This document shows, piece after piece, positions 19,766 to 64,000 of a stretch of DNA of 64,000 nucleotides. Below the pieces are notes generated by a model. It saw only the letters and a list, made by a program, of their open reading frames with translations. It ran no database searches and was not told the origin of the DNA. Each line of letters opens with the position of its first letter. Positions within the stretch are counted from its first letter, which is position 1. Source of the DNA: a virus; the IMG/VR virus record IMGVR_UViG_3300045988_100778, positions 1 through 64,000 of that record. One strand, written 5' to 3'. Both the position numbers and the translations under genes were made by a program.

Positions 19766-20695
19766 ATGGAAACTTTCGATGATTTAAAGTTGGATAGATA
19801 CATAAACAAGGCTCTTTTGGAAAAGAGCCTGGGAAGACCAGAAATGTATGACGGTCTTCTGGAGATTGCGAAGGCACAACAAGGCGTATATGTGAACAAC
19901 GCAGTAAACCGGAAGCTTGGCATTGTTGGACTGCCATATAAGAAGAGAAAGGCTACAGAGGAAGAGAAAGCCGACTTAACCAAGACAACAGAAGACCTTT
20001 ATAAAGAAGGTAGTGCGTGGAAGCGAGACAGACAGATTAAGGTACATAACAAAATAAAGTCTGAGTATTTTAAGAAAATGCTGTATGAGACCAAACCGCG
20101 TGCTTATCTTATGCTTGGAGGTGGTGGTTCTGGAAAAGGGTATTATCTTAAGAAGATGAAAGAGAAGGACCCGTCTATAGACAAGTTACCCGTTATTGAT
20201 GTGGACGATATGCGCGACATGATACCGGACTATGAAAGGGTGAAGGGGATAGACCCGAAGAAGGCATCTTCCTATGTGCATGAAGAGGTATCGGATATAG
20301 GAAAACAGATTGATAAAGAATATATTTCCAAAAAATCTTCTTTTGTGAAAGACGCTGTTTTCGGGAATCCAGCAAAACTTGAAAAATTGGTTGATGATTT
20401 GAAGGCACAGGGTTATGACGTTCATCTTGTAGGTGTGGCAACCGATTTCAGTACAGCTTTGGACAGAATACAGAAACGGTTTGAAAGAACGAAACGGTAT
20501 GTCCCTACAGAAGTGGCGAGAAAAGGACATAAAGGCGCGTCCGCATCTTTCAAGAAAGTTATCGAAACTCCATTGAAAGACAAATTCAAGTCCGTTAAAT
20601 TGTATGATGGGAATTCCGATAACGGGGTGATTTATGATAACAAAGTGTTAAATCAAAAAGAACTTGATAGGTTTCTTAAAAAAATAGACTTATAA
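19766..20695 (+). CDS. zeta-toxin-like P-loop kinase domain protein
   Basis: Walker A LGGGGSGKGY; VIDVDDMRDMIPDYERV; GYDVHLVGV; RTKRYVPTEV. These match the order of conserved blocks in the Zeta_toxin family. Confidence 0.6.
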   Translation: METFDDLKLDRYINKALLEKSLGRPEMYDGLLEIAKAQQGVYVNNAVNRKLGIVGLPYKKRKATEEEKADLTKTTEDLYKEGSAWKRDRQIKVHNKIKSEYFKKMLYETKPRAYLMLGGGGSGKGYYLKKMKEKDPSIDKLPVIDVDDMRDMIPDYERVKGIDPKKASSYVHEEVSDIGKQIDKEYISKKSSFVKDAVFGNPAKLEKLVDDLKAQGYDVHLVGVATDFSTALDRIQKRFERTKRYVPTEVARKGHKGASASFKKVIETPLKDKFKSVKLYDGNSDNGVIYDNKVLNQKELDRFLKKIDL

Positions 20696-21180: not shown

Positions 21181-22130
21181 TATTCACACCGGAAGAGATA
21201 CAAAAACTGTATGATATAATAGACTACCGTCTTGCAAGGATTGTAGCCGATGTAATGGGGGATGAACTGTTGACACCGGAAGACAAGTCCTTGTTAAGGC
21301 GGTATGGCTATAAATGGAGAAGGGAGATAGAAAAGTTACCACCCTATTTCCAATCCTATCTGTTTGGGAGATTGAGTGCGCAACTCACGCCAGCACAATT
21401 ATCAACACTCAATTTTGACGATTTTACCAAGTATATAGACCGTCACCAATGGGCAGTTCTTACACCCCTGGAAAAGGAAGTGTATTATGCGGCAGCAACA
21501 CGCACATATTCCTATATAAAGACGATGGGAGAACGGGCCAAAACGATAATGTCTAATGCCGTATCGGAAGAAGAGGTGAAAGCCCTTGTGGAGAAGCAGA
21601 GACAACTGGAGCTGGGAACGATAAAGAAGGAGATGATAGAGGGTGTCTTGAAAAAGAAGTCCGTTCAGAATATTGTTAGCAATATAGGGCATTCCTTGGA
21701 AGACTGGAACCGTGATTGGGGACGTATAGTGGAAACCGAGATGCAGAACATCTATCAGACCGGGGTAGCCCAGCAGATAATGAAGGAGCAGGGGGCGGAT
21801 GCGCTTGTATATAAAGAGGTGTTCAGTGGAGCATGCCAGCACTGTATAAAGTTTTACACCACAGCAGGGATAGGAAGCAAACCGAGGATATTCAAGCTTA
21901 TAGACCTTATAAGCAATGGGGACAATATAGGGAGGAAAGTTAAAGATTGGAAACCAGTGTTAAATAGTGTTCACCCTTTTTGCCGCTGTGACCTTAGGGA
22001 GGTGCCTAAAGGTATGGTTTGGAATGACGAGACGCATTCATTTGAACCGCCTAAAGAACCATACAAGAGACAGATAGAGAGAAAAAGTAAAGTAAAAATA
22101 TATGTTGGAGACAAAGTGTTTGAGGTATGA
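21177..22130 (+). CDS. minor head protein, Mu gpF / SPP1 gp7 family
   Basis: NSVHPFCRCDLREVP (H-P-x-C-R-C signature); located downstream of the portal. Confidence 0.8.
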   Translation: MIFTPEEIQKLYDIIDYRLARIVADVMGDELLTPEDKSLLRRYGYKWRREIEKLPPYFQSYLFGRLSAQLTPAQLSTLNFDDFTKYIDRHQWAVLTPLEKEVYYAAATRTYSYIKTMGERAKTIMSNAVSEEEVKALVEKQRQLELGTIKKEMIEGVLKKKSVQNIVSNIGHSLEDWNRDWGRIVETEMQNIYQTGVAQQIMKEQGADALVYKEVFSGACQHCIKFYTTAGIGSKPRIFKLIDLISNGDNIGRKVKDWKPVLNSVHPFCRCDLREVPKGMVWNDETHSFEPPKEPYKRQIERKSKVKIYVGDKVFEV

Positions 22131-31518: not shown

Positions 31519-31574
31519 TTTGCATCTTTGAAAGAAAATGTTTAGTTTTGTACAAATTTAAGCATTTTGTTAGT

Positions 31575-32030
31575 ATGAGAGCAAAGAAAGTATTGGAAGT
31601 CCTTGGTATAAGTCGGGCAACATTATCCAATTATGTAAAGGAAGGAAGGATAAAGACCCATAATTCCGCTACACAATGGATAGATTACGACGACGAATCC
31701 GTATATGCGATTGCATCTAAAGGACAAAGAAAGAATGTAATATATGCAAGGGTTATGAATAAACATAACCTTAACAAGCATATAGAAGCATTGGAAAGGT
31801 ATTGCAGGGAAAACGGACTGCACGCCAAAGATGTATATAAGGACGTGACGTTTAACGTTACATTGGCGCAAAGAAAAGGGTTCAACAAGTTGTTGGACGA
31901 TGTGATATCCTATAAGATAGGAACGGTAGTAACACTGAGCCGGAAAAGTCTGTCGGGAACGGACAGTGATTTTATAGAGATGTTGTTTGCAAAATTCGGG
32001 TGTGATGTAAGGTATATAACGGAAGAGTAG
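31575..32030 (+). CDS. IS607-type (MerR-HTH + serine recombinase) homologue lacking catalytic residues
   Basis: The HTH LEVLGISRATLSNYVKEGRIK is followed by VIYARVMNKHNLNKHIEALERYC, where active enzymes have YARVSSxxQ. The DR-x-x-RFG block is replaced by SRKSLSGTD. Confidence 0.6.
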   Translation: MRAKKVLEVLGISRATLSNYVKEGRIKTHNSATQWIDYDDESVYAIASKGQRKNVIYARVMNKHNLNKHIEALERYCRENGLHAKDVYKDVTFNVTLAQRKGFNKLLDDVISYKIGTVVTLSRKSLSGTDSDFIEMLFAKFGCDVRYITEE

Positions 32031-37594: not shown

Positions 37595-38870
37595 GAAATT
37601 TAAAATATTCTATTTATATTTGTGGTATGTATTTAACGGAACAACATATAATAACAGTTAATGATAAGAGGTACAAGGATTTAGACCGGATTTGTTTCTT
37701 ATCCAAGAACTTGTATAATGCGGCTTTATATATCATAAAGCAAGAATTTCTTGTTTCCGGGAAATGGATAAGGTCTGTAGAACTTAATAAAAAGATGGTT
37801 GCAGAAAACAATGTTGATTTTAGGGCTATGAGCGGTTCCTCTTCCCAGCAAATTTTAATGGCTTTGGATAAGAATTTGAAATCTTATTTTTCAGCCATTA
37901 AAGCATGGAAAAGGGATAACAAGAAATTTACCGGATGCCCTAAATTTCCGAAATACAAACATAAGACAAAAGGAAGAAATGTATTTTCTTATTCTTATGT
38001 GCAATTCAGACATAAAGGAGAATATATTTACTTTCCAAAGAAAGAAGGTCTGAAACCGTTAAAAACGAAATGCAAGGAAGGAACAGTTAAGCAAGTCAGA
38101 TTTGTGCCGAAAGCAGATTGTTATGTAATAGAATTGGTATATGAATCAGAAGTAAAGGAACAGTTACTAAACAACAATAGATATATGTCTATTGATTTGG
38201 GGGTTAACAATCTTGCTTCTATTGTAACGAATACGAGTAACAGGGCTGTTTTGGTAGATGGCAAGAAATTAAAGTCTATCAACCAGTATTATAACAAGAA
38301 AAAATCTAAAGTTCAATCACAATTAAAGAAAACAAATGGAAAGGAAAATTCGAGACGGCTAATGAACCTTACAAGAAAAAGAAACAATAAGGTCAAGGAT
38401 TATTTGCATAAGGCAAGCAAGGAAATTGTAAGCATGTGCTTGAAAGACAACATAACTACATTGATAGTAGGACATAATGACGGATGGAAACAAGAAGTAA
38501 ATATGGGTAAAAGAAACAATCAGAATTTTGTTTCAATTCCGTTTGAAACTTTCATATCAATGTTAAGGTATAAATCTGAAAGACAAGGACTAAGATTTGT
38601 TGAAATAAACGAATCTCACACGTCAAAATGCAGTTCTTTAGATTTAGAAGAGGTAAAACATCATGATAGTTATATTGGAAAGAGAGTAAAAAGAGGTCTT
38701 TTCAGAACAAAGGACGGAATTTTACTCAATGCAGATATAAACGGAGCCTATAATATTATGAGAAAAGTAAAGGGGGATGCAGCAATGCCACCCTATAGAG
38801 GGTTTGGGTATAACCCAGTTAAGAAATTTATTAACAAATAGATACAAGTGTAAACATGTATATAATTACC
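37550..38870 (+). mobile_element. tnpB cassette bounded by the 9-bp direct repeat AAGACAGTG
   Basis: The repeats lie at 37541-37549 and 38871-38879. The interval contains only a promoter and tnpB. Confidence 0.55.
37627..38841 (+). CDS. tnpB: TnpB (IS200/IS605-IS607 accessory RNA-guided nuclease family)
   Basis: SIDLGVNNLASI (RuvC-I Asp), VGHNDGWKQEVNMGKRNNQNFVSIPF, EINESHTSKCSSLD and GKRVKRGLFRTKDGILLNADINGAYNIMRK (RuvC-III). 404 aa. Confidence 0.85.
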   Translation: MYLTEQHIITVNDKRYKDLDRICFLSKNLYNAALYIIKQEFLVSGKWIRSVELNKKMVAENNVDFRAMSGSSSQQILMALDKNLKSYFSAIKAWKRDNKKFTGCPKFPKYKHKTKGRNVFSYSYVQFRHKGEYIYFPKKEGLKPLKTKCKEGTVKQVRFVPKADCYVIELVYESEVKEQLLNNNRYMSIDLGVNNLASIVTNTSNRAVLVDGKKLKSINQYYNKKKSKVQSQLKKTNGKENSRRLMNLTRKRNNKVKDYLHKASKEIVSMCLKDNITTLIVGHNDGWKQEVNMGKRNNQNFVSIPFETFISMLRYKSERQGLRFVEINESHTSKCSSLDLEEVKHHDSYIGKRVKRGLFRTKDGILLNADINGAYNIMRKVKGDAAMPPYRGFGYNPVKKFINK

Positions 38871-39296
38871 AAGACAGTGAAGGAAGAAGTAAGACCGTGT
38901 GTTTCTTGTAAGGAGAACCATTTCATATACGACCGTAACAGATGGTTATGTAAGGAATGCTACGACAATAGAAAGAAATTGAAGTTGAACCGCGCTTCAT
39001 TGAAGGAAGAGGAAAACAGGCTTAACGAAGTGTTTGTTAAGGTATGGGAGGAGAACCCCCACTATTGTTTCCATTGTGGAAAGTGGCTGGGGCTTGAAAT
39101 GAAACCTATTTTCTTCTCCCATATATTGAGTAGGGGCGCGCATCCCGGTTTACGTTGTGACCCGGAAAACATAGTTTTGGCATGTATGGAATGCCATCAG
39201 ATATACGATTTCGGAGACAGAAACAGTCTGAAGAACCAGATACCGGAAGAGAGGATAGAAAAACTTTTGGAGAAAGAGCATGGGAAAAGATATTGA
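38856..39296 (+). CDS. HNH / NinG-like zinc-binding nuclease
   Basis: CVSCK...CKEC...CFHCG...SHILSRGAHPGLRCDPENIVLACMECH fits the H-x-x-S-R-G ... N ... C-x-x-C-H layout. Confidence 0.55.
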   Translation: MYIITKTVKEEVRPCVSCKENHFIYDRNRWLCKECYDNRKKLKLNRASLKEEENRLNEVFVKVWEENPHYCFHCGKWLGLEMKPIFFSHILSRGAHPGLRCDPENIVLACMECHQIYDFGDRNSLKNQIPEERIEKLLEKEHGKRY

Positions 39297-40643: not shown

Positions 40644-41297
40644 GTGAAAACAAGTAGTAATTTCGTGATTGTCTATGACTTTGAAACCGGGGGATTGCCA
40701 AGCAAGGAGAAGCAGGCTTTTTTGGACATCCCTTTGGTAGAAATGGCTATGTCGTGCATAGACATGAAAAAGTTGGAAATAATAGACCGTGCAGAAATGA
40801 TATTCCCGTATAACTACAAGGAAGGACTTGCAGGATATTCGGAGGAAGCAACGGCAGTACACGGCATAACAAAAGAAGTCCAAGAAGAGAATGCGGTGCC
40901 ATTGAAAGAGATATACAGCACTTGCAAGAAATGGTTCGCCAAATACAAGAATCCACGCCAGATGTGTACGCTTGTAGGGCACAATATCGTAGGATTCGAT
41001 AACCCGTTTCTGAAAAACTTCTTCGCCTACATGAACGACGATATAGACAATTACGTAAAATACTACATAGACACGATGCAGTTTGCACACATGGTAGCTT
41101 TGGAGCAGATGGACTACAAGCTGGGCACGTGTTGCCAGGCTGCCGGGATTGACCTTGTGGAAGCGCACAGGGCGCAGCACGATGTGGATGCGAACGCGAT
41201 GTTGTTCATTTCCTACGTGAAGAAGTTAAGGGGTGAAGGCGTGGAAACGGTGGAGAAGAAAGAAAGGAGATATAGAGAGGACTTCCAGTTATGTTGA
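40644..41297 (+). CDS. DEDDh 3'-5' exonuclease (DnaQ-like)
   Basis: Exo I VYDFETGG, Exo II LVGHNIVGFDNPFL, Exo III AHRAQHDVDANA. GTG start. Confidence 0.8.
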   Translation: MKTSSNFVIVYDFETGGLPSKEKQAFLDIPLVEMAMSCIDMKKLEIIDRAEMIFPYNYKEGLAGYSEEATAVHGITKEVQEENAVPLKEIYSTCKKWFAKYKNPRQMCTLVGHNIVGFDNPFLKNFFAYMNDDIDNYVKYYIDTMQFAHMVALEQMDYKLGTCCQAAGIDLVEAHRAQHDVDANAMLFISYVKKLRGEGVETVEKKERRYREDFQLC

Positions 41298-43405
41298 CGG
41301 GTGACGGAAAAGGAATACTTACAAATAATCAGCTTACATATCTGTACAATGCGGTAGACAATATCATAGAGAGACTGCCGGAAAGGGCGCTTAACCAGTT
41401 GTTGGAAGGATATGGAAACGACGTTGATACCATGCTTAGGGAAATGGTGCATCAGTCGGAAAAGGCGCTGTATCTGGGTCGGACGCTGGATTCAGAAAGT
41501 TTATCCTATGTGGATAACGTGAAAGCCTCTATGGACAATACGCTTAAAATATTGTCCCTCAATTATTTCATAACAACCATGTTGCCTAAATTCCGGTTAG
41601 GGTGGCGTAATATAGAGTGGGGAAATCTCACTCAATTATACCCGTGGAGTTGTTATTTATGCGCCCGGGCGAGTGGCAAGTGCATGAGTGCTGATACATT
41701 GGTTGTAATGTATGATGGGGCTTTGAAGAAGATTCAAGATATAGAAGTTGGTGATAAAGTGATGGGTGTTGATTCAACACCGCGTACAGTGCTGCAATTA
41801 CATAAAGGTGTTGCACCTATGTATAAAGTGAGACAGTCCAAAGGAATGACTTATGAAGTGAATGAAGGACACTTGCTTTGCTGTTATTATAACGGTTATT
41901 TCATTGATGTAGAAGTAGATGCTGTATGTAGACAACAGAAAGATATAAGAAAGTTGTTTCTGGGATATAAAGTCAAGAATATAGGGAAAGGAACACCAGA
42001 ATTTGATTATTCTTCATTGAAGATTGAACCTATTGGAGAGGGGGAATATTATGGTTTTGCGTGCGATGGAGACCATAAGTTTTTATTGGAGGATGGGACG
42101 GTTGTACATAACAGTTATCAATGGTCTTATGCCTTTATTCTGTGGCGTTTATGGTCCTACACAAGACCGACTGCATATAGACAAGACACGGTAGACAATG
42201 CCAACCGGAAAGAAACATGCTATATTACCAATACTTTTACACTGGCAAAGGTGCAGATAGCGAAAGTGACGGAAGAGATAGAGGCGAACGACTTAATAAA
42301 GGAAAAACTGAACCCTTATAATAAGGCTTCAATCGGAGAAACAGCCATAAAGACGGAAACGGGGAGTACGCTGCATGTACGCGGTAAGGATTCAATGATT
42401 CGCGGTCTGCATGTGGGGGCTTGCTTGTGTGACGATATGCCGGATGAAAGCTCCCTATATTCGGACGAACAAAGAGAGAAATTGAAAGAACTTCTGAAAG
42501 GTACTATAGAACCGATTGTAGAGCCATACGGTTACTTTCTTGTAACTGGTACGCCTTATTCTTCTGCACCGAATGAATTGTACCAGATATTGAAGGCAGA
42601 CAAGCGTTTCTATTGTTTTGAATATCCGATATTGTTTCCGGATGGCAGACCGTTGGCACCAGACAGATACACGTTTGAACAGATATTGGCGAAAAAGGAA
42701 GAACTTGGAACGATTGTGTTCAACCGTGAATACTTGGTGGTTCCTATCAGTGACACGTCAACGATATTTCCGTATGAATATCTGATGCGTAGCGTTATAG
42801 GAATGGAAACGATACGTTTTGCGTCAAGTATAGACGATTTTCCTTTCAAGCTTACAAGGGTACATATAGGTGTGGACTTTGCGGTTTCCGGTAATATTGG
42901 AGCGGACTATACAGTGTATTCGGTATGGGGCAAAGATGCGATGGATAACTACTATTTGTTGTACTATTACCGGAAGCGCGGTATGTCGCATAACGAACAG
43001 GTGGATAAGATTGTACAGCTTGACCGACTTTTCCACCCCAATAAGATACGGTGTGAGGCAAACGGTTTCCAGTCCATATTGTCCGGACTGGCAAAGGAAA
43101 GAGGGCTTAAGAATATAGAACCATTTACGACAACGGAAGGAAACAAGAAAGATTTGTATACTGGACTACCTTCTTTGTCCGCAATGTTTGAAAGAGGACA
43201 GATAAAATGCCCCTATGCGATAGGAGAAACGAGGCAGGCGGTTGACTTGATGTTCGGTGAATTTTCTTCTATTACATTTAGAAGTGATAACGGGAAATTG
43301 GAGGCGGCAAGTGGTCACGATGACGTGGTAATGTCGTCGTTCATTTCCTTAAATAGCTTACGCGAAGACGATAAAGAAGTACAAGTAAGTGTAGAATTAA
43401 TATAA
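41291..43405 (+). CDS. terL: terminase large subunit, interrupted by an intein
   Basis: Walker A ARASGK|S split by the intein; Walker B LHVGACLCDDMPDE; nuclease blocks IGVDFAVSG and SGHDDVVMS. Confidence 0.85.
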   Translation: MLTGDGKGILTNNQLTYLYNAVDNIIERLPERALNQLLEGYGNDVDTMLREMVHQSEKALYLGRTLDSESLSYVDNVKASMDNTLKILSLNYFITTMLPKFRLGWRNIEWGNLTQLYPWSCYLCARASGKCMSADTLVVMYDGALKKIQDIEVGDKVMGVDSTPRTVLQLHKGVAPMYKVRQSKGMTYEVNEGHLLCCYYNGYFIDVEVDAVCRQQKDIRKLFLGYKVKNIGKGTPEFDYSSLKIEPIGEGEYYGFACDGDHKFLLEDGTVVHNSYQWSYAFILWRLWSYTRPTAYRQDTVDNANRKETCYITNTFTLAKVQIAKVTEEIEANDLIKEKLNPYNKASIGETAIKTETGSTLHVRGKDSMIRGLHVGACLCDDMPDESSLYSDEQREKLKELLKGTIEPIVEPYGYFLVTGTPYSSAPNELYQILKADKRFYCFEYPILFPDGRPLAPDRYTFEQILAKKEELGTIVFNREYLVVPISDTSTIFPYEYLMRSVIGMETIRFASSIDDFPFKLTRVHIGVDFAVSGNIGADYTVYSVWGKDAMDNYYLLYYYRKRGMSHNEQVDKIVQLDRLFHPNKIRCEANGFQSILSGLAKERGLKNIEPFTTTEGNKKDLYTGLPSLSAMFERGQIKCPYAIGETRQAVDLMFGEFSSITFRSDNGKLEAASGHDDVVMSSFISLNSLREDDKEVQVSVELI
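41681..42112 (+). mobile_element. 144-aa mini-intein in the TerL P-loop
   Basis: Begins CMSADTLVVMYDG, has block B NEGH, ends DGTVVHN, and is followed by Ser. There is no room for a homing-endonuclease domain. Confidence 0.8.
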
Positions 43406-52976: not shown

Positions 52977-55900
52977 ATGATTACTAAGACAGCGAATACG
53001 ATTGCAAATTTAAAGAATTTGTGGATTGAAATGTTTTTAAACAAGACCGACCGTGTTTCAAACATTGCGGACGGTTCTGTACTTAATGGCGTCGCTTATG
53101 GTACCGCAAAGGTGGCGCAAAAAGCGATAAAGGATATTGCCATAGTGGAGGCGCAGATTTTCCCAAAGTCGGCAACAGGCGATTATCTGGACAAATCGGC
53201 CGCGTTGTTCGGTGTAAGTCCGAGAAAAGAAGCGCTTGGCTCCTCTACTTATGTACGTGTTTTTGCCGAGCCTGGCACGCATTATGAGGTAGGAACAAAG
53301 TTTATTTCAAAGAACGGAGTGCAATTTACTGTAGACCAACCTTTTACGGTTGATAAGTCGGGATATGGATATATCAGTGTAAGAAGCGTTATCACTGGGT
53401 CTGCTACCAATGTGGAGGCAAACAGTATTACGGAAGTATCGCCAAGACCATTGACACATATAGAGTGCACGAATGAATATGCGGCTATCGGTGGACGTGA
53501 TTATGAGGACGACGAGACATTCAGAAACAGAATAATAAATTATAATAACAAGCTTTCCACTGACACTATGGAAGGCTGGACGCAAATATTCCAGGATTTA
53601 GACCCGCGCATTTTAAAGGTAATGAATGTTGGGCTGGGTGAGGACGGAAAGACACACATTTACCTTGTAACCCAAAACGGGTCTTTCTTTACGGATGATG
53701 AATTGGAAGAATTGCTTACAAAAGCTACACCCTATTTCGGACTGACCGAACTTGACTTGCAAGGGAATACGCTTGGAATTGTGATAGAAAATGCAAAATG
53801 GATGTATGTAGGCGGTGAAGAGGGGGTGGATTTCCGTGTGGAATTGTCGCCTAATGCAGTGATTGCGGATGTAAGAAAAAATATCCAGATTGCAATGACG
53901 AAGTATCTGGATTTCCGTTTCTGGGAAGCAGGCAAAAAGGTAGAATGGGATGATTTGCTGGAAGTGGTGAAGACTGCGGAAGGCGTTAAGTATGTACCGG
54001 ACGAATATTTCTTTCCCTATTTTGACGAAGAGGTGCCTTTGAACATGTTGCCGCGTATCAAGGGATTCAGAATGCGAGACTTGGAAGGGAATATTCTGTA
54101 TGATTCGGGCAGCAGTTTGTCCAATATTTTTTATCCGGCAGGAGAAAGCGACATATATAAAGGTTCTCAATCGGTTATAGCGTCACAGAAATATTTGTGT
54201 TCATTTACCGTAACCAATACCAAGAATGTAGCCGTACCGGGCGCATATATAACAATAGGAAACAAGGTAATCATTACGGACAGTAACGGTACGGCAAACA
54301 TTCTTTTGGAAAATGGGGAATACACATACATATTGTCAAAAACGAACTGGACACAGAAGACAGGGGAGTTTGTTGTTCTGAACAATCCTATTTACATAAA
54401 CATAAATGATTTTATTGCAACACCCTATCCGGTTACGTTTACTGTATATGAAGGTGAAGCGCCCTTGCAGGGAGTGACTGTAACTACAAGCGTTTACACG
54501 TCAGAAACGGACGATAAGGGGCAGGCAGTCATTAACCTGGAGCCGGGAACCTACGAATACAAGCTTGAAAAGTCGGGTTTCCAGACCATAGAAAGCGTAT
54601 TTACGGTCGAAAATCAGCCAGTAGACATATTTCAAAGAATGTTTCTTACAAAAATGAATGTAAATTTTGCTGTAATTGACAGAAACAGAAGTATTTACAT
54701 TCCGGAAGCAAACATCACAATAAATGACATAAAGGAAAAGACGGATAACGAAGGGCAGGCAAGTATGGGATTGCAAACCGGGAAATACGAAATGAGGGTT
54801 GCAAAAGAAGACTATCAAGACCTTGTAAAGGAAATTGAGATTGTTGGGGAAGACCCTAATTGTATTCTCGTCGAAATGACGGCAATTCCGTATGCGATAA
54901 AGTTTACGGTGCTGGATTCTGCTACCCACATGGTTCTGGAAGGAGCAACGATAAAGATAAATGGTTCTACCTATCTGACCGACAAGGAAGGTATAGCGAT
55001 TATAAGTTTGCCGAACGGAACCTATGAATATACGGTTTTCAAGTCCGGTTATATGTCCGTTAATGATTTTGTAGTGGTGGAAGGTTCGGAAGTTTCTAAA
55101 ATTGTGGAATTGGAACAAGCTTTCTATACATTCCGCTTGACTGTACGGGACATTGAAAACGGTAACTATATCCAGGGTGCAGAATTGCAGATAAACGGAG
55201 AGACGCGTGTAACGAACGTCAACGGTGTTGCAAGCGTAACACTTGGAAACGGTGACTATGAATATACGGTAACGCACAGAAACTATAAGAGATATACCGG
55301 AACTGTGACTATCAAAGACCAGGACGTGCCGGAAACAATTTACTTGGAATTGAGAGATACGGTAATAACATACACTGCAACGGACGCGATAACGAAGGCT
55401 CCTATTTCCGGCGTATATATCGAATTGATAAACAAGGGAACTGGAATTAAGGTGGATTCCGGTTACACGAATGATATAGGTGTATTGCAGCTTGGAGCGG
55501 AAGCAGGGGAATATACTTGGAATGCGACACACAGATATTATGATGCGGTAGAAAACCAGTCGATAACGCTTGAAAAATTGAAGGATATAGACCTTCCCTT
55601 TACTATGACAAGAAGGGAAATCGAACCGGAAGTTGACGTAATAGAGAATATCCCCGGTGTGTCCGGTGATGCTACTACAGTAAGGTTCAGTGGTGAAAAT
55701 ACGGCTGAGACGTTATCTAATGACAGTTATTATTACATAGTTCATACACCGGAAAACTTCGTTATTCCTAACAAAGGGGTGACGTTTGATTTGATGGAAC
55801 ATGTAAAAACTTTTCGACGTGCAGAAATTGGCGGTGAGGACGAGCCATACGATTTTGCAAGTGGAGGTGCAGAATTGGTATTCAACGTATCGAATGACGA

Positions 55901-58900
55901 AATAGCTTCTTTGGAAGGTACGATGTTGACAGTGCAGCCGAATGTGACACGTGATGCACAGCCGAGAACTTTCTATGTGGATGTGACGATAACGACTCCG
56001 GTAAGCCAGGTGACTGTAAAGATAACTGCTGAACAGAAAGCTGCTCTGAACTTCAATCCGGTTAAGGACGGAATTGTCGTTTCGGTAAAAAATATGTACA
56101 ATGATAATGTACGGGAATATACGACGAACGCGGCAGGAAAGATATTTCCGGAAGTGATGTTGGGTATTGACTATCAGTTGACAATAAAGGAGAAAGGTTT
56201 CTACGAGAACAACGGCTTGCTGATTAAGAACTGGGGCTTCGGTGCGAGTGTACCTACACTGATGGAAATAACGGCTTCAAAAAGGCTTGAATTGAGAGTA
56301 AAACAGCAGAATACCCTAAGACCGCTTGAAAATGCGACTATAAAGGTGTCCGGAATGTCACTGCCTCAAACCGTTACGTCCGGAAGTGATGGTTCGGCAA
56401 GAGTGTACATTTCACCTATTGCAATGAGCTATGAGTGTACAGTAACAGACCATACGAAAAAGACTGGAACATTCACACCCCCGTTGTCGGCTGATTATAT
56501 GGATATAATCATGGGTTATGCTGCAATGACATTCAGTCTGACATTAACAGCAAGTAACCCCTATTCCAAGGCGGCAGAAAGTTGTCCGGTAACGGTTACG
56601 AGTGCATGGAGCGGAACATCTTCACAATCATATAGTTTTTCTGGAACAACGGATGCAAGCGGACAATTGACATCACAAGGAAATGGAAATTTCAATATAC
56701 CGCCTGGAAATTATACGATAACCTATGGAGGTGGAAACAGTAATTTCGACGGTAAGACAGAAAATATCTATCTGCCTACGGACAAGACGCATTCAGCAGT
56801 ATTAACAAGAAGAACGAAATCAGTCACATTCACGGTAAAGGAAATAATACCCTCTATTTCGACTACAGCATCAAATCCGGTAAAGACAGGTCTTGTGCTT
56901 GCATGCTATTACAACGACAATAGTACATCTTCGGGTGCGAATGTAACGACGAATGCAAGCGGACAATTTACAAAAACAGTGTATGCAGGAATTGCAGAAC
57001 GTTTCCAGGTGCAACCAATAGGATTCTATTCTGGAAACGGTGCAATAGCTACAGTCAATTATAAAGATGCAAACACAAAAGACCTTGTATATACATGTTC
57101 AAAGAGAATTCCGGTATATATCACATCCAATCTGTATGGTGAGTTAAGTGGCGCATCAGTGACGTTCAACGGAATGTCTGTGAACCAGACAGGAACGACC
57201 AATACGGACGGGATAGTGCAAATGTACATATCTCCGGTAAATATGTCTTACAGTGTAAGCAAGCAGCATTACAATACCAAGACTGGGAATTTCAAGCCTA
57301 CCGGAACAGAAACAAGAATGGATATTGAATTGGAGGCGAAGGAGTACCCGGTCACTTTCCATGTGTCAACACAAGGAGTTTTGCCACCGGACGGAATTTT
57401 GGTACGTGTGACAAACAACGCATTGCCGGACATTGTATTTGAGGGCGAGACGAATGTGGAAGGAACGATAGTCATGCCGAATGTTCCGGTAGGAGAATAC
57501 ACCTATGATGTTCTTGCAGGTGAGGTTTCATCCGACACATTCTTCCATCCTCAAAGTGAAAGTGGTACAGTGTTGGATGTAGAAGTGCAATATGAATTGA
57601 TTAACGCAGGTATTCAAGTTTCGGAGGTGTATGGTACGGCAGGAAGGGCGTATCTGTCAAATCAGACTATTACAATGACTTCCAAGGCAGGAACGATAAA
57701 GCTTACTTTGGATGAGAACGGTTATACCAATCAGTTATTAATAAAGGGATTGGAATACACGTTTACGACTGATTCATACCCGGCTTTTTATAGCAACCCG
57801 ACACAATCCTATACATGGACCGAAGACGGTGTGATATGGCCGTTCAACTTGAATGTGACCTCAAAGATAACGGTCAATGTAAAGGATGTATATGTGAAAA
57901 ACAATATCCAGGGAGTAACGGTAGCTTACAACGAACAGATAGTGACGACGGATGCAAGCGGTAACGCTTCATTGTTCCGGTCAGCACTGACAAAGGACTA
58001 TTCTTTGGATAAAGAGGATTATAGTACAGTAAATGGAACCATTGCACCTACCACGGCTTCACCACTCAATGTCACGATGTTGAGAAACAAACATGTAGTG
58101 ACGGTACAGCAGTATGAAGTAATACCAGGTGGTGCGAGTGTAATTTTGGACGGTGGTTATAATTTTACTCTTAATTATACATCAGCAGCAGGAAACGGAA
58201 CTATTAGTAGTGGTACAAATACATTTGAGGCATATATCGGCATTCCTATCACATTTGCAATAGTAGCAGAGAACAGAAGGGTATTTTATAGTAATCCAAC
58301 TCAAACCCATACATTTACATCGGCAGGTGAGAAATGGAACATGAATCTTACTTGTGCGAAACAGATAACCGTAAATGTGAAAGACAATGTGCCTGGCGCG
58401 AATGTACAGGGAGCTACGATAAACTATTTTACACAGACAAAAACGACGGATGCGAGCGGAAACGCAGTCTTTTATTGGAGTGGTTCAGACCCACGTAATA
58501 TATCAGTAAGTGCTTCAAATCTGGAATCTTATACCGGACAGATAGCTTACAATTCACCAAATCCGTTCAATGTTGTAATGACACGTGCAGCCAATCCGGT
58601 TACACTTGTAGTAAGAGAAATAACGCCAGCACAAACAACTTATTATCAGAACTTACAGATAAAATACACGGTAGGAAGTGCAACCGGAACACTTACTACA
58701 AATGCGAACGGTGCAGTGACATTCAATGGATATATAGGTACGGAAATGACGTTTACGGTAGTGGGACATCCGGAATTTTACAGCAACCCGACACAGAAAC
58801 ACACCTATACAGCCGCCAATCAGTCATGGACTATGGATTTGACGGTAACAGCAAAGATAACGATTAATGTCAAATCGAATGTACCGAGCGGAACAAATTT

Positions 58901-61900
58901 GAGTAGAGCTACCGTATCATATTTTCATCAGACAGGGACAACGGACAATAGCGGTAATGTATCATTGTATAGGAGTTCTGTAACAAGAAATGTAGATATT
59001 ACAGCGACATATCACGGTAATTATAGAGGCAGTATAACGTCAGACACCGCGTCTCCGTTCAACGCGGTAATGACGCGTTCAACCGCGACAGTAAGTCTTG
59101 GAGTGAGTGAAGTTGTTCGGGTTACTCCTAAATACATGCTCGAAATCACTACGGATGCAAGTTCTGCTGTAACTCCTAGATTAGGTGGCTTCTATTTTGG
59201 TACACCAACAGCAGCAAATAAGGAGTTTGTGGCGTATTTTAGAGCAAAGATTCCGGCTGATAGAAAGCTTATTTTTGCAAGTAATGCAACAGGTGACAAC
59301 CCTATAAGAAAATGGGTTAATTCAAATGACGGAAAAGGAACAGGAGGATGGTACACTTATGCCTACTATGTAAGATGCGGTTCTACTGGAAGGTTTTCAA
59401 CAACCAATTTTTTCTATATAGAGGGTGGAAGTAGACCGATTACATGGTATCTCGAAATGGCAACGGTATTCGACATAACCGGAAGCAATGTTCAGAATAA
59501 ATCGGATGCCGAGATTTTAAGTAAGTGTACTTTTGATAGAATGTTGTCTGGCAATAAAGACTTTTTGTTCAATGAAGGCTCGAACAGAATAAGATGGTAC
59601 AATAATTCTAATACAAATGCTGTAACAGTGACAAGAAAGGCGGCTTCTGGAACAGACACGTTTAATTTCACGATGGCAACTTATGCGTCTATGAAGATGA
59701 ATTTCAGTCCGGCAGCTTCTACAAGTCCTTTGACACTTGATACAAACGGTAATGTGTCTTTTGTATGCTATTTAGGTACGCCAGTAACATTCACACCGAC
59801 AACAAGAGCTAATTATTACAGTAATCCAAATACTGCACTGACTTATACAGCAGCAGGACAGTTCCAGGGAATATATCTGATTTGTAACCAAAAGATAACC
59901 ATTAATACAGTAGCGAATATCTACAATACAAGTAATGCACTTGCAGGAACGATAACCTATTTCGGACAGACACTTCCGTCTGGAGGAAGCTTCTATAGAA
60001 GCGGATTAGACAGACAAATGACCGCCACGGCACAGTATTTCAACAACTACGTAGGAACAGTTACCGCCACACAGACATCACCCTATACAGTGACGATGAA
60101 CAGGACGACAAGAACAGTAACATTGATTGTTAGGGAATCAGTAGGTAGCAATGAATATACATTGAGTAATGCGGTGATAGTAAGAAGTGTTCCGTCTACT
60201 TCAAATGCTCCGGCAGGAGAAATAACACTGGACGCAAACGGAAAGAAAACGAATACTGTATATGCAGGTATAAGCTACACCTATACACCAAAGAATTACG
60301 CAAGCTATTACAGCAATGCAAGCCAGGGTCATACATGGACGAGTGAAAACGAGCAATGGATTATGACATTGAATGTGACGGCACGTCTGACATTCAACAT
60401 AAAGAGTTCTAATTATGGGACAAATATAAGTGGAGTATCATGTTCCTATTTAGGACAGACTGGAACGACTGATTCCAGTGGTAACTGGACTGTATACAGA
60501 AGTGGTATAAGTAGAAGCTACTCATTCTCGAAAACAAATTACAATGCGTTATCCGGTACATTATCGGCAGCACAAGCAAGTCCGTTGAACTTGAAAATGA
60601 GTGAGACAAGTTCTTCTATCACTATAACAATAAAGGACTATTATCAGAGTGCCGTAAAAGGAAATGCGAACGGATGTCCGGTAACGCTGACGAACAAGAG
60701 CCTTTCTTCTATCACGTTCACGGGAACGACAAACAGTAGCGGACAGGTGAGTTTCGGACCCATGATAGCAGGTTCATATACATTGTCATGGGGTGGAGGA
60801 ACAAGTTATTGGGTAAATGGAAGTACCACGATAACAATGCCTACAGCAACAACTACACAGAATGCTGTAAGATTGACGAAGATTGTAGGTAATGTATTTT
60901 ATTTCCAAACACCAGCTACAGGAACGGCATTCAAATATTGGGCCGTAAATACTTTATTGAAGCCAGTATATACCACTGGAGGAGTGGCGACAACAGTAAC
61001 TTTGGTAAAATCGGGTGCGACATATTATGATATAGGAAACTACACGTACATTGCAGGTATAGCAACGACAATAAGTACGGCAGTAGCGACATATTTCAGA
61101 ACCGGAAGTTCTACCAACACTGCTTCCGTATATTCTGTCACTCCTACGTACAACTTTAACAATATACCGGGTGTCACAAGTTCAGCGCCTTTATGTTCGT
61201 ATGCGATAAAGGGTATTGTAGTGACTGTACAGAACAGCTATACAAATGCGGCTGTAAATGGAGCCACAATAAAGATGTATGGTATAAACGGTAGTAATGT
61301 TGTTGGAGGCGCAGGAGATGGTGCAGTACAGACTGTAACGACAAACAGTGCAGGACAGGCGACAGTATATATATCTGGACTGACAAACAGATACATAGTA
61401 AGTGCGACAAGATACGTGACATTAAACACCACCAACACGAACACCTCTAACTTTACAATCAAGCTGGTACCGTCGGAAGTGACAATAACAATAAACGTAA
61501 ACAACGCGAGTACAGGTTCAAGAGTAGGAAGTGGTGTAATAGTGAAGCTGTCAAGTAACAACACCAGCACGACATATAGCGGCACTACAAACTCGTCCGG
61601 ACAGGTGGTACTGAAGATAAAGCCGGGCAATTATTGGTGGGAAGCAGGAGGTAGCACGACCTGGGGAGGAAACGGAACAGGAACATGGAATTATCCGAAC
61701 CGTTCCACTACCTCAATCTCTCTCATCAAAGACCAGTCCATAACAATAGAGGCTCTAAAGGTAGGGGTGTGGGTTGATAGTGGAAGTGTGTATTTTGGAT
61801 TTAAAAATAACGAAAGTTTTTATACTGGTATAAATAGAGAAAATGGAGGGTCTGATTATATAGCTCATATCGGCAGTAGTCAAGCATTTATGATGAATAT

Positions 61901-63257
61901 ACCGTCTGATGTAAATACTTCAAATTATACGGTAAAAAAATTCTTATATTCATTTTCAAGACCTGGAATTGCTGCTCCATTTATAAATGCTTCTGTAATA
62001 ACAACTTCTTCCAATGGTTCTTTTCAATATAATATCGGAACTGACTTTAGTTCAAGTGAAGTCTTAATGGCAGATTTTCTTTATCTGTCTCTTTGGGGTG
62101 AAGCTTCTTATAATTACACTTTTGTAATGTATAGTGTAACAAGATATTCATTAGCGGCTTATTATTGTCAAATAAGAATTTTAAAACAGACTGGTCAAAT
62201 GCAACAATCTACATATTTTTTGCAAGAAGTTAGTTATGATGATTTGCCATACATAAAAGATATTTTAAATAATTTTTGTTACAAGAATTATTACGTTCCT
62301 TTATTGAATTATGGAGAAAACCAGGATGATAATTATATTTATATAGTAACGGGAATGGATTGTTTCGAATCTACTGATTATGTAATAAGTTATTCTATAG
62401 ATTATCAGAATACACCTGGGAGTCTTTGGAGCAGAAACCGTCTTCAAATTAGTGGTAATTCGAGAGTAAGTTCTGGTGCTGTAAAGAGATTCTTGTTTAC
62501 ACAAAGTAGTCACGAACTTTCCGTACTGGTATATGGTAAAAGAAATGATGTAAATAATAAATGCCATGCTGCTGTGTTATCGTTTAAAAGTTCAGAATGG
62601 AGTCATATAAGAAGTGGTTCAATCGCCAATAATGTTTGGTCTGTATATGACAATTTCCCGGCTGCATTTACTGACAAAATGGGTAATAATATGTGGGTTT
62701 CAAGTAATCTGAAATGGATGTTTGCTGTTTTGTATGGAACAACAGACAAACCGTATGGAAAGGGCCTCGTTACTGTAAAGAGTGCAACACCTATTATTGG
62801 GAAAACTGGCTGGTCTTTAACTACTTATTATATAGATGATGATTCAACATTGGAAATACGAAATGCAGTTGCTAATAAATACGTTCTTGATATTATTTTC
62901 AATAGCACTGACTATAAGATGATTGTATTATGTAACAGTCTGATAGGTTCTGGATTAGACCAAGATACTTATTATTCTTTTATCAGTCCAGATTATTTAT
63001 ATTGCTTTGTTTATAACGGAAAGAAATGGATGGAATTTTCAAAAGAGAGTGTAGGAATGAGTACGTTGTGGAATAGATATGATAATTATAAGACAATACC
63101 TGGCGGTGGAACGTTTGTCGATTACAAACCTTATTTTAATGTTATGGGTGTTACTGGTATATATGATAGTAACAGAAATATTTCTTTTGTCTATCCAGCA
63201 AAATATTCAACTTATGAACCAACAGCTTATGAATATAGTCTGACATTTGGTGATTGA
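52977..63257 (+). CDS. giant baseplate-J-like / tail fibre fusion protein (3,426 aa)
   Basis: Single uninterrupted ORF. The N-terminal ~390 aa are Baseplate_J-like (DGSVLNGVAYGTAKVAQKA...GDYLDKSAALFGVSPR). Dozens of beta-sandwich repeats follow, then a distinct ~500-aa C-terminal tip. Confidence 0.85.
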   Translation: MITKTANTIANLKNLWIEMFLNKTDRVSNIADGSVLNGVAYGTAKVAQKAIKDIAIVEAQIFPKSATGDYLDKSAALFGVSPRKEALGSSTYVRVFAEPGTHYEVGTKFISKNGVQFTVDQPFTVDKSGYGYISVRSVITGSATNVEANSITEVSPRPLTHIECTNEYAAIGGRDYEDDETFRNRIINYNNKLSTDTMEGWTQIFQDLDPRILKVMNVGLGEDGKTHIYLVTQNGSFFTDDELEELLTKATPYFGLTELDLQGNTLGIVIENAKWMYVGGEEGVDFRVELSPNAVIADVRKNIQIAMTKYLDFRFWEAGKKVEWDDLLEVVKTAEGVKYVPDEYFFPYFDEEVPLNMLPRIKGFRMRDLEGNILYDSGSSLSNIFYPAGESDIYKGSQSVIASQKYLCSFTVTNTKNVAVPGAYITIGNKVIITDSNGTANILLENGEYTYILSKTNWTQKTGEFVVLNNPIYININDFIATPYPVTFTVYEGEAPLQGVTVTTSVYTSETDDKGQAVINLEPGTYEYKLEKSGFQTIESVFTVENQPVDIFQRMFLTKMNVNFAVIDRNRSIYIPEANITINDIKEKTDNEGQASMGLQTGKYEMRVAKEDYQDLVKEIEIVGEDPNCILVEMTAIPYAIKFTVLDSATHMVLEGATIKINGSTYLTDKEGIAIISLPNGTYEYTVFKSGYMSVNDFVVVEGSEVSKIVELEQAFYTFRLTVRDIENGNYIQGAELQINGETRVTNVNGVASVTLGNGDYEYTVTHRNYKRYTGTVTIKDQDVPETIYLELRDTVITYTATDAITKAPISGVYIELINKGTGIKVDSGYTNDIGVLQLGAEAGEYTWNATHRYYDAVENQSITLEKLKDIDLPFTMTRREIEPEVDVIENIPGVSGDATTVRFSGENTAETLSNDSYYYIVHTPENFVIPNKGVTFDLMEHVKTFRRAEIGGEDEPYDFASGGAELVFNVSNDEIASLEGTMLTVQPNVTRDAQPRTFYVDVTITTPVSQVTVKITAEQKAALNFNPVKDGIVVSVKNMYNDNVREYTTNAAGKIFPEVMLGIDYQLTIKEKGFYENNGLLIKNWGFGASVPTLMEITASKRLELRVKQQNTLRPLENATIKVSGMSLPQTVTSGSDGSARVYISPIAMSYECTVTDHTKKTGTFTPPLSADYMDIIMGYAAMTFSLTLTASNPYSKAAESCPVTVTSAWSGTSSQSYSFSGTTDASGQLTSQGNGNFNIPPGNYTITYGGGNSNFDGKTENIYLPTDKTHSAVLTRRTKSVTFTVKEIIPSISTTASNPVKTGLVLACYYNDNSTSSGANVTTNASGQFTKTVYAGIAERFQVQPIGFYSGNGAIATVNYKDANTKDLVYTCSKRIPVYITSNLYGELSGASVTFNGMSVNQTGTTNTDGIVQMYISPVNMSYSVSKQHYNTKTGNFKPTGTETRMDIELEAKEYPVTFHVSTQGVLPPDGILVRVTNNALPDIVFEGETNVEGTIVMPNVPVGEYTYDVLAGEVSSDTFFHPQSESGTVLDVEVQYELINAGIQVSEVYGTAGRAYLSNQTITMTSKAGTIKLTLDENGYTNQLLIKGLEYTFTTDSYPAFYSNPTQSYTWTEDGVIWPFNLNVTSKITVNVKDVYVKNNIQGVTVAYNEQIVTTDASGNASLFRSALTKDYSLDKEDYSTVNGTIAPTTASPLNVTMLRNKHVVTVQQYEVIPGGASVILDGGYNFTLNYTSAAGNGTISSGTNTFEAYIGIPITFAIVAENRRVFYSNPTQTHTFTSAGEKWNMNLTCAKQITVNVKDNVPGANVQGATINYFTQTKTTDASGNAVFYWSGSDPRNISVSASNLESYTGQIAYNSPNPFNVVMTRAANPVTLVVREITPAQTTYYQNLQIKYTVGSATGTLTTNANGAVTFNGYIGTEMTFTVVGHPEFYSNPTQKHTYTAANQSWTMDLTVTAKITINVKSNVPSGTNLSRATVSYFHQTGTTDNSGNVSLYRSSVTRNVDITATYHGNYRGSITSDTASPFNAVMTRSTATVSLGVSEVVRVTPKYMLEITTDASSAVTPRLGGFYFGTPTAANKEFVAYFRAKIPADRKLIFASNATGDNPIRKWVNSNDGKGTGGWYTYAYYVRCGSTGRFSTTNFFYIEGGSRPITWYLEMATVFDITGSNVQNKSDAEILSKCTFDRMLSGNKDFLFNEGSNRIRWYNNSNTNAVTVTRKAASGTDTFNFTMATYASMKMNFSPAASTSPLTLDTNGNVSFVCYLGTPVTFTPTTRANYYSNPNTALTYTAAGQFQGIYLICNQKITINTVANIYNTSNALAGTITYFGQTLPSGGSFYRSGLDRQMTATAQYFNNYVGTVTATQTSPYTVTMNRTTRTVTLIVRESVGSNEYTLSNAVIVRSVPSTSNAPAGEITLDANGKKTNTVYAGISYTYTPKNYASYYSNASQGHTWTSENEQWIMTLNVTARLTFNIKSSNYGTNISGVSCSYLGQTGTTDSSGNWTVYRSGISRSYSFSKTNYNALSGTLSAAQASPLNLKMSETSSSITITIKDYYQSAVKGNANGCPVTLTNKSLSSITFTGTTNSSGQVSFGPMIAGSYTLSWGGGTSYWVNGSTTITMPTATTTQNAVRLTKIVGNVFYFQTPATGTAFKYWAVNTLLKPVYTTGGVATTVTLVKSGATYYDIGNYTYIAGIATTISTAVATYFRTGSSTNTASVYSVTPTYNFNNIPGVTSSAPLCSYAIKGIVVTVQNSYTNAAVNGATIKMYGINGSNVVGGAGDGAVQTVTTNSAGQATVYISGLTNRYIVSATRYVTLNTTNTNTSNFTIKLVPSEVTITINVNNASTGSRVGSGVIVKLSSNNTSTTYSGTTNSSGQVVLKIKPGNYWWEAGGSTTWGGNGTGTWNYPNRSTTSISLIKDQSITIEALKVGVWVDSGSVYFGFKNNESFYTGINRENGGSDYIAHIGSSQAFMMNIPSDVNTSNYTVKKFLYSFSRPGIAAPFINASVITTSSNGSFQYNIGTDFSSSEVLMADFLYLSLWGEASYNYTFVMYSVTRYSLAAYYCQIRILKQTGQMQQSTYFLQEVSYDDLPYIKDILNNFCYKNYYVPLLNYGENQDDNYIYIVTGMDCFESTDYVISYSIDYQNTPGSLWSRNRLQISGNSRVSSGAVKRFLFTQSSHELSVLVYGKRNDVNNKCHAAVLSFKSSEWSHIRSGSIANNVWSVYDNFPAAFTDKMGNNMWVSSNLKWMFAVLYGTTDKPYGKGLVTVKSATPIIGKTGWSLTTYYIDDDSTLEIRNAVANKYVLDIIFNSTDYKMIVLCNSLIGSGLDQDTYYSFISPDYLYCFVYNGKKWMEFSKESVGMSTLWNRYDNYKTIPGGGTFVDYKPYFNVMGVTGIYDSNRNISFVYPAKYSTYEPTAYEYSLTFGD
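54200..55610 (+). repeat. array of ~7 carboxypeptidase-regulatory-like (~85 aa) domains
   Basis: Recurrent pattern x-V-x-G-A-x-I-x-I-N-G-x-x-x-x-T-D-x-x-G-x-A-x-x-x-L-x-x-G-x-Y-E-Y-x-V-x-K-x-G-Y. Confidence 0.65.
57785..60800 (+). repeat. ~495-bp two-domain super-repeat ((F/Y)YSN... units)
   Basis: The motif (F/Y)YSN(P/A) starts at about 57785, 58284, 58776, 59812 and 60305. The 58776-59812 interval carries an extra ~540-bp unique insert. Confidence 0.7.
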
Positions 63258-63263
63258 TTTAAT

Positions 63264-63319
63264 AAAGAGTAACTATATACCTAAACATTCTTGATGTAAA
63301 TGGTATATAGTTACTCTTT
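63264..63319. terminator. perfect 18-bp inverted repeat between convergent fibre-tip ORFs
   Basis: AAAGAGTAACTATATACC (63264-63281) and GGTATATAGTTACTCTTT (63302-63319), separated by a 20-nt spacer. Confidence 0.6.
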
Positions 63320-63341
63320 AATTAATATGAACACTTATTTA

Positions 63342-64000
63342 TTAGTCTCCGAAAGTCAGTTTAGCGTAATAAGCTGTCGTATTTTCGTTATATGAAGGGA
63401 AGGAATAACTCATATCCCAAGAACCAAGATAATTAGGATTGACATTAAAGAATGGTTTGTATTTTGCACCAGAACTTCCAGAGGATATATATTTATTCCA
63501 GAAATTAGTAAATCCTACTGTACTATAAGGTATATTTACCCATTTTTTACCATTATACATAAATGTAAATAAATGAGTTGGATGAATACCTTCTATATAT
63601 TGGTCTAATGTCTTTCCTCCTTGTGCTCCTACTGTATCGTTACAGAGAACAATCATTTTATTTTCATTCTTATTAAACTGAATTTCAAGTACATAATAAT
63701 TTGCAAGTGTATTTCTTAAATCTGCTGTAGAGCTATCGTTAATGGAATAAGTAGCTATCTCATTCCAACCAATATTTACGCTAAAAAGTGAATTTGAACT
63801 TGTAACTGTATTAATACCTTTCCCTATTCCGTAATTCCCCCTTTTGCAATACATCAGTGTCTTCATATCTGTTGTTACCCAAGCATTCAAACCAAAATCA
63901 TCTGTAATTGCAGAAGGAATATTATTGTAAAAAAACCAAAAATTATTTCCTTGATTATCATCTATATAATTCCATGTAGGAGCACCTCTAAATATAAATA
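63342..64000 (-). CDS. fibre-tip paralogue (partial; 5' end beyond the window)
   Basis: The frame stays open to nt 64000 (hand translation ...FIFRGAPTWNYIDDNQGNNFWFFYNNIPSAITDDFGLNAW...). It ends ...AYYAKLTFGD* and is homologous to the last ~220 aa of the giant fibre. Confidence 0.7.
   Translation of the reverse strand, partial: FIFRGAPTWNYIDDNQGNNFWFFYNNIPSAITDDFGLNAWVTTDMKTLMYCKRGNYGIGKGINTVTSSNSLFSVNIGWNEIATYSINDSSTADLRNTLANYYVLEIQFNKNENKMIVLCNDTVGAQGGKTLDQYIEGIHPTHLFTFMYNGKKWVNIPYSTVGFTNFWNKYISSGSSGAKYKPFFNVNPNYLGSWDMSYSFPSYNENTTAYYAKLTFGD

Follow-up and report, generated by a model that had tools for sequence, protein, structure and literature searches.

A segment with two opposed fibre tips occurs in both orientations among related human-gut phages

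Introduction

A few temperate enterobacterial phages, each with an invertase of its own, are the textbook cases of host-range switching by inversion of a fibre gene segment. In the Mu G (Gin) and the P1 and P7 C (Cin) systems, the constant N-terminal part of the fibre lies outside a segment of ~3 kb and the alternative C-terminal parts lie opposed inside it. In Mu G and P1 C the segment is bounded by inverted repeats and inversion fuses either part in frame, and in P1 the repeat is itself coding and forms part of the constant region. Here we describe a locus that shares this layout, the coding repeat included. It lies at the end of a 64,000-nucleotide stretch (the window) of IMG/VR virus record IMGVR_UViG_3300045988_100778, where a giant fibre gene faces a second, inverted fibre tip, an arrangement that an earlier reading of the letters alone (the original prediction) had put forward as a candidate invertible or alternative host-range cassette. 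We find that window 61697-64908 is very probably an invertible two-tip fibre cassette that inverts in nature.

Three further groups of systems invite comparison. Min of p15B, the R64 shufflon (Rci) and the Rin shufflon of Bifidobacterium prophages (PMC6109161) likewise swap C-terminal specificity modules by DNA inversion and gain combinatorial diversity, with several segments and crossover sites per genome and a dedicated recombinase; at the locus described here, by contrast, each genome has two arms and two tips, no Phage_integrase gene is found, and the combinatorial diversity lies between genomes. In Anabaena cyanophages, recombinase-less isomerisation affects a segment of ~30 kb between inverted repeats of ~500 bp (bioRxiv 10.64898/2026.02.14.705889). 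As at the present locus, close relatives show either orientation irrespective of phylogeny, a dedicated recombinase was not identified, and recombination-prone replication was proposed as the cause; there, however, the repeats are long and the segment holds whole genes, whereas here a 78-nt coding repeat splices alternative ends onto one protein. In bacteria, gene-altering inversions and intragenic invertons swap the C-terminal parts of specificity proteins, and prophage tail fibres are enriched among them (PMC9881135, PMC10028968); unlike the present case, these are chromosomal or prophage loci, usually with a recombinase nearby. The authors of a 2026 survey presented their candidates as the first putative invertons from viral genomes of the gut, with a Microviridae capsid gene as the worked example (PMC13501310). 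Our literature search turned up fibre inversions in Mu, P1, P7, prophages and tailocins; it returned no account of the present family of phages, nor of any invertase-free switch of fibre tips.

Results

Anatomy of the fibre cassette

The fibre protein exactly matched an ENA contig (ERZ27261566 k99_95822, 105,344 bp; L001 below), which overlaps the window by 21,024 bases, all of them identical (21,024/21,024). Window positions equal L001 positions plus 42976, and those beyond 64000 are extrapolated in this way. The remaining ~43 kb of the ~107-kb genome were covered through the relatives L046, L125, L200, L246 and L254, whose marker proteins are 98-100% identical. Megablast of window 60000-64000 against GenBank phages gave no match, and an exact-protein look-up of the first open reading frame (ORF) of the window gave no record.

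The original prediction had named a fibre ORF of 3,426 aa and a minus-strand ORF that ends at 63342 and runs off the window, and both were borne out (Table 1). The fibre begins with a Baseplate_J domain (Pfam E = 5.8e-18), continues with ~2,400 aa of CarboxypepD_reg, PEGA and Ig-like repeats (CarboxypepD_reg E = 5.7e-32) and ends in a tip, tip A. The minus-strand ORF, which is complete in L001, carries a second tip of ~496 aa, tip B. By BLASTP, with the last 498 aa of the fibre as query and the 218 aa of the minus-strand ORF inside the window as subject, the C-terminal ~222 aa of the fibre (from nt ~62589) are 38% identical to the minus-strand ORF (86/226, E = 8e-41). The paralogy claimed for the last ~220 aa therefore holds, the sequence blocks quoted as shared were found, and in a wider alignment weaker homology spans the entire ~490-aa tips.

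The tips lie between two arms of a 78-nt inverted repeat, 100% complementary to each other and separated by 3,056 nt. Both arms encode the same 26 aa (NRSTTSISLIKDQSITIEALKVGVWV) in frame: the left arm does so within the fibre, and the right arm, read on the minus strand, in frame with tip B (NRSTTSISLIKDQSITIEALKVGVWV followed directly by SDEWSGGD...), with a TAG stop immediately upstream. Because both arms are in frame with the same 26 aa, inversion would swap tip A for tip B in frame. A crossover repeat with one arm within ~61.7-62.6 kb had been predicted, and the left arm lies at the low edge of that range; no other inverted repeat of at least 30 nt was found within the 64-kb window. Nor is the minus-strand ORF the independent fibre gene that would have spoken against a cassette: its frame opens exactly at the right arm, behind the TAG stop, with no anchor domain and no start codon of its own at the arm. 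The whole cassette, arms included, measures 3,212 bp and extends 908 nt past the window end. Gin- and Cin-type switches use 26-bp crossover sites of the gix or cix type with a 2-bp core, together with a Fis-bound enhancer; in the present repeat, inspection by eye showed only two small palindromes, GAACCGTTC and TAGAGGCTCTA, at roughly chance level.

The segment between the arms contains the two tip ORFs and an 84-nt spacer, and nothing else. Its GC content is 30.8%, compared with 42.0% in the constant part of the fibre and 42.8% in the next gene, which agrees with the AT-richness noted earlier for the fibre C-terminal domain and the inverted ORF. Along the sequence, the GC fraction runs at 0.40-0.44 and then at 0.29-0.34 beyond ~62000, the shift starting at the inner end of the left arm. 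The further statement that the window has just two minus-strand genes, this ORF among them, was not confirmed: after greedy picking of ORFs, some dozen minus-strand ORFs that could not be annotated remain in the window (for example 4261-4812 and 11206-11688).

Between the facing stop codons, which are 84 nt apart as predicted, lies an inverted repeat with 25-nt arms at 92%, including the perfect 18 nt already noticed (AAAGAGTAACTATATACC). Folding of the hairpin on the two strands gave -32.1 and -29.2 kcal/mol (z = -7.5 and -7.9), and the element is bidirectional and terminator-like. A scan with sigma-70 promoter and terminator models stayed at shuffle level, the consensus being unsuited to a phage of a probable Bacteroidota host. 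The hairpin, GTAACTATATACC-(20 nt)-GGTATATAGTTAC, is common to different tip pairings, while some other pairings have a classical GC-rich hairpin with a T-run in its place; each tip retains its own short 3' tail beside the hairpin. The central 18-bp repeat was considered as the crossover site and rejected, since it lies between the stop codons, is replaced elsewhere by an unrelated GC-rich hairpin and has a terminator-like fold.

Table 1. Coordinates of the cassette, its neighbours and other genes named in the text. Positions beyond 64000 are extrapolated from L001.
Feature	Window position	Contig position	Strand	Remarks
Giant fibre ORF	52977-63257		+	3,426 aa
Constant fibre part	52977-61696		+	aa 1-2906; from ORF and Pfam
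Left arm	61697-61774	L001 18721-18798		Inside fibre ORF, encodes NRSTTSISLIKDQSITIEALKVGVWV; constant/variable junction
Tip A, expressed position	61775-63257		+	~494 aa, in frame with constant part; ends ...TAYEYSLTFGD-stop
Hairpin	63257-63326		both	In 84-nt spacer (63258-63341) between convergent stops
Minus-strand ORF, complete		L001 20366-21862	-	
Tip B, silent, complete		L001 20369-21854	-	
Tip B, 3' part	63342-64000		-	Last 218 aa and stop within window
Tip B, part beyond window	to 64830	L001 21025-21854	-	Meets right arm
Right arm	64831-64908	L001 21855-21932		Starts 831 nt past window end
TAATTTTG	~64951-64958	L001 ~21975-21982	-	~40 nt upstream of right arm
Next gene, fibre-like	64989-70457	L001 22013-27481	+	1,822 aa; preceded by 80-nt gap
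Portal	18050-19759			
Zeta-toxin-like kinase	19766-20695		+	E = 1.5e-34
Resolvase-like ORF	31548-32030		+	160 aa
First TnpB	37627-38841		+	
HNH-like ORF	38856-39296			After first TnpB
Terminase large subunit	41291-43405		+	
Second TnpB		L200:2090-3301		Outside window
PolIII alpha		L125:11030-15110		Outside window
SbcD-like, RecA, SbcC-like		L125:17886-19882; L254:3434-5431		In a row; outside window

Both orientations among related genomes

Relatives were found with a 24-nt core of the repeat as search pattern. The core occurs in 43 stretches of IMG/VR (~30 contigs, many of them 105-108 kb) and in 39 stretches of human-gut metagenome assemblies; the related contigs number ~50 and stem from human-gut viromes and metagenomes; no match was found in GTDB genomes, and the core thus provided no host or prophage link. 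With contigs oriented by the constant-fibre flank and the right flank, each genome has exactly two arms, 2,965-3,060 nt apart, and two convergent tips. All genomes examined have preserved the exact reading frame across both arms.

At least eight classes of tip can be told apart by N-terminal sequence: A (DSGSVY), B (SDEWSGGD), C (EWSSSNF), D (EKDYVGQ), E (NRRVEQ), F (DVESANMNPYF), G (DFATYTNMN) and H (DFSIEDIT). They occur in 12 different pairings, and for seven of these (A/B, A/D, B/E, D/F, A/C, E/F and C/F) the same tip pair is found both ways, in closely related genomes. The original prediction is supported in its main points: the layout of the Mu G and P1 C type read from the window, a constant body with tips in opposite orientation, is matched by repeats, in-frame fusions and both orientations among relatives.

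The closest flipped pairs differ by about 1%. L001 and L011 carry segments that are 99.08% identical over all 3,056 nt, in opposite orientations between right flanks that are 100% identical over 600 nt; the flipped segments of L027 and L033 are 99.05% identical and those of L006 and L024 98.9%, and two further flipped pairs stand at 95.6% and 89.5%. The A/B pairing comprises two sub-lineages, ~96% identical, with both orientations in each. Orientation thus does not follow descent, and the 16 genomes require no fewer than five independent flips, three of them at a divergence of ~1% or less.

Each tip may be regarded as a cassette bounded at one end by the repeat and at the other by the hairpin, both conserved, which would account for the many pairings. 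A search for tip homologues yielded short ORFs and not a single fibre of full length, so that protein length gave no tally of expressed against silent tips; the fragment P0017, of 797 aa, does run from the constant region into a tip. At one locus (L340:2925-4342, PPYF01267469.1) the fibre stops three codons past the repeat (VWVFTK-stop) and a tip of a further, ninth type (YLPSEESKLYAISNSF...) is read in the +1 frame, which is either a sequencing frameshift or a disabled tip in the expressed position.

Sequence evolution and structure of the tips

The silent tips are intact ORFs of 487-503 aa, with L022 as the sole exception. Close alleles of tip A differ by 8 nonsynonymous and no synonymous changes (8N:0S) and by 12N:0S, and those of tip B by 21N:3S. 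The nonsynonymous changes fall at recurrent sites (24, 234 and 357 in tip A; 74-97, 151-155 and 221-222 in tip B), mainly in the N-terminal half, whether the copy is silent or expressed. Between tip A alleles that are further apart, dN/dS is ~0.25. Taken as a whole, the pattern fits a constrained scaffold whose contact surface is under diversifying selection, and is not what a copy silent for good would show. A diversity-generating retroelement was rejected as the source of the nonsynonymous excess and tip variability, as no reverse transcriptase was found: RVT_1 had no match in any Pfam scan, the only related match being RVT_3 (RNase H-like, E = 5.6e-4).

The tips have no Pfam match, and a PDB sequence search with a tip profile found nothing. 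AlphaFold models built from 19-20 homologues were confident only for the conserved C-terminal ~270 aa (mean pLDDT 74.9, pTM 0.77). Foldseek matched the models to beta-propellers only (GH43, PL25, GH74, sialidases and WD40; E 1e-4 to 1e-2, TM <=0.33). A propeller-like glycan-binding tip is plausible on these models; an enzymatic or lectin assignment was not made, the fold matches being only weakly beta-propeller. We consider a host-range role of the switch likely, and infer that the tips differ in receptor specificity.

The gene that follows the cassette encodes a second fibre-like protein with CarboxypepD_reg repeats and a weak, sub-threshold match to DUF285 near its C-terminus. Two kinds of receptor-binding protein are therefore probable in this phage.

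Recombination genes of the phage

Pfam scans covered ORFs of at least 100 aa in the window and of at least 70 aa in the rest of the ~107-kb genome, and found no Phage_integrase, no Recombinase and no catalytically intact Resolvase. The original prediction had stated that no active recombinase lies in the window, and this holds: the only Resolvase match lacks the catalytic serine. It had also looked to a recombinase gene past 64000, where these scans show none; the segment is adjoined by the fibre gene and the second fibre-like gene, and no invertase was found in the rest of the genome either. Gin, Hin, gamma-delta and Tn3 resolvase sequences, used as queries in tblastn and in a small HMM, had no match in the window at E below 2.

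The Resolvase match is an ORF with an HTH_17 and a Resolvase N-terminal domain (E = 1.6e-7), in which the nucleophile motif reads VIYARVMNKH in place of YARVSS, with serine replaced by methionine, and which ends after ~100 of the 145 profile positions. With YARVM for YARVS, truncated, and 30 kb from the segment, it was rejected as the invertase. Its architecture is like that of IS607 TnpA and it lies within the structural gene block; it may be a domesticated DNA-binding remnant. Two TnpB genes per genome were also observed, with OrfB_IS605 and Cas12f1-like TNB domains. Neither adjoins a functional TnpA, and an HNH-like ORF follows the first.

Outside the window the genome encodes PolIII alpha with an intein, UvrD, SNF2, a ligase and the second TnpB. 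It also carries SbcD-like, RecA (E = 1.9e-74) and SbcC-like genes in a row, a module whose role would be comparable to that of T4 gp47, UvsX and gp46.

The cassette works like Mu G and P1 C and stands apart from the Gin/Cin type, no catalytically competent serine invertase being adjacent to it. Unlike in Mu G, P1 C and e14 P, no gin- or cin-type gene is found beside the segment or elsewhere. Unlike Mu G and P1 C, the segment has no U/U' fibre-assembly genes, the phage looks virulent, and the fibre is a fusion with Baseplate_J that measures 3,426 aa; over their whole length the arms evolve in concert, and the population holds a library of at least eight tips in many pairings.

Evolution of the repeat

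Among 26 genomes with both arms on one locus, the repeat has at least 10 variable positions, and within most of them the arms are identical over their full length. In L011 the right arm has the variants of that genome's own left arm, though its right flank is identical to that of L001. The arms thus undergo gene conversion over the whole repeat, a concerted evolution within each genome that heteroduplex repair in homologous recombination would produce and that conservative exchange confined to a fixed core would not. The perfect repeat is also longer than the minimal pairing length for general homologous recombination. In a second right-flank lineage the right arm is shortened to 59-62 nt, without the outer 16 nt (GAACCGTTC), and this lineage too occurs in both orientations (L322 versus L324).

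Discussion

A model for the switch

In the model that we propose, a constant, baseplate-anchored body of 2,906 aa ends in a 26-aa joint encoded by the 78-nt repeat, and two ~490-aa tips lie tail to tail between the inverted copies. Recombination between the copies would flip the segment and fuse the body in frame to the other tip, and the displaced tip would become a promoterless, start-less silent copy. The flipping would probably be driven during replication by the SbcD-RecA-SbcC module of the phage and not by a dedicated invertase. The repeat and the central hairpin could further act as homology handles by which individual tips are shuffled between phages.

The anatomy, the in-frame design and the recurrent flipping in nature are direct observations. 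For the route of flipping, we lean towards homologous recombination between the coding repeats, with some reserve. A fuller picture is one that we put forward only tentatively. In it, a widespread, virulent family of ~105-kb human-gut phages, probably of Bacteroidales, would flip the repeat without an invertase, by its own RecA-type recombination during replication, so that both tip states occur in every burst; the repeat and the conserved hairpin would also dock at least eight rapidly evolving tips traded at co-infection.

Several points weigh against this model. At 78 nt, the repeat is short for RecA-type recombination as a frequent switch. Its mean pairwise identity is 0.955, compared with 0.81-0.90 in the flanks, and this conservation and the palindromes GAACCGTTC and TAGAGGCTCTA would equally fit a site recognised by a protein. 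Many phage ORFs have no Pfam match and the scan covered those of at least 70 aa (100 aa in the window), so that a novel recombinase is possible. The flips are seen between genomes of different assemblies, not within one population. L317 has an in-frame ATG just upstream of its silent arm. Lastly, the receptor-binding role is argued from the position of the tips and the weak beta-propeller-like match.

Alternative explanations

The same anatomy and purpose could be served by a site-specific recombinase acting in trans at a core within the repeat, either an invertase of a Bacteroidales host or a phage protein. Bacteroidales genomes hold many trans-acting invertases, Mpi among them, and many phage ORFs have no Pfam match. 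The repeat is highly conserved, its inner ~30 nt being invariant in all recovered arms (partly forced by the 24-nt search pattern), the TAGAGGCTCTA palindrome lies within this invariant core, and flips are frequent relative to sequence divergence. Yet no recombinase gene was found beside the segment or elsewhere in the genome, the lone resolvase-like ORF has no nucleophile, concerted evolution spans all 78 nt and not the core only, and a virulent phage that relied on a host enzyme would lose its switch upon a change of host. We regard a trans-acting recombinase as a serious but unlikely alternative to homologous recombination.

It is improbable that there is no switch at all, the minus-strand ORF being an independently expressed tip or accessory protein and the flips rare accidents between duplicated joints. 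Gene callers do annotate this ORF as a gene of 451-514 aa, and at L317:4001-4074 (JGI 3300076361, 105,737 bp) the 59-nt right arm is preceded by the in-frame ATG mentioned above (MNFIQSLIKDQ...), so that some genomes may be able to translate the silent tip on its own. On the minus strand, upstream of the right arm, TAATTTTG fits the Bacteroides -7 consensus, TAnnTTTG, and might drive transcription of the silent tip or of an antisense RNA. Most genomes, however, have a TAG stop directly against the arm; L002, L029 and L033 do have the ATG, but a short (TC)n run puts it 2 nt out of frame; and the ORF is without an anchor domain. The exact frame match of both arms in every genome examined is likewise at odds with independent expression, and the number and recency of the independent flips with rare accidents.

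That the opposite orientations are assembly artefacts at the repeat is scarcely credible: several short metaSPAdes contigs do begin or end in the repeat (e.g. L327, L335 and L343), as is typical of graph breaks, but with 78 nt the repeat falls short both of typical reads and of the k = 99 that the name k99_95822 implies, dozens of independent full-length contigs of ~105 kb from different projects agree on each configuration, and orientation goes with an intact in-frame fusion every time. Contig breaks at the repeat were likewise set aside as proof of heterogeneity within a sample, since metaSPAdes at k of 55 or less breaks at any 78-nt repeat.

Lifestyle, host and implications

The phage looks virulent, because it has no integrase and no match in bacterial genomes. 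A BACON-domain protein and the human-gut sources suggest a Bacteroidales host. The portal is ~35% identical to those of Bacteroides phages of the DAC/SJC group and of SPO1-like myoviruses.

The cassette shows the protein-splicing design of the enterobacterial phages in a family of gut phages that is abundant and apparently virulent, where it sits on a baseplate fibre of 3,426 aa and no invertase gene was found. The related genomes supply natural evidence of repeated flipping and of a shared library of interchangeable tips, which appear to evolve under diversifying selection. Phase variation alters the cell surface of Bacteroidales hosts; a flip-flop on the side of the phage would match this as a counter-strategy and help to explain the long-term coexistence of phage and host in the gut. 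The 78-nt joint and the hairpin would offer natural module boundaries for engineering receptor-binding tips, and segment orientation should be considered in metagenomic strain and host-range calls for these phages.

Three observations concern genes away from the cassette. The terminase large subunit contains a Hint/homing-endonuclease intein, and an intein splicing domain is also present in the PolIII alpha of the relatives. Directly after the portal gene, the phage encodes a zeta-toxin-like kinase.

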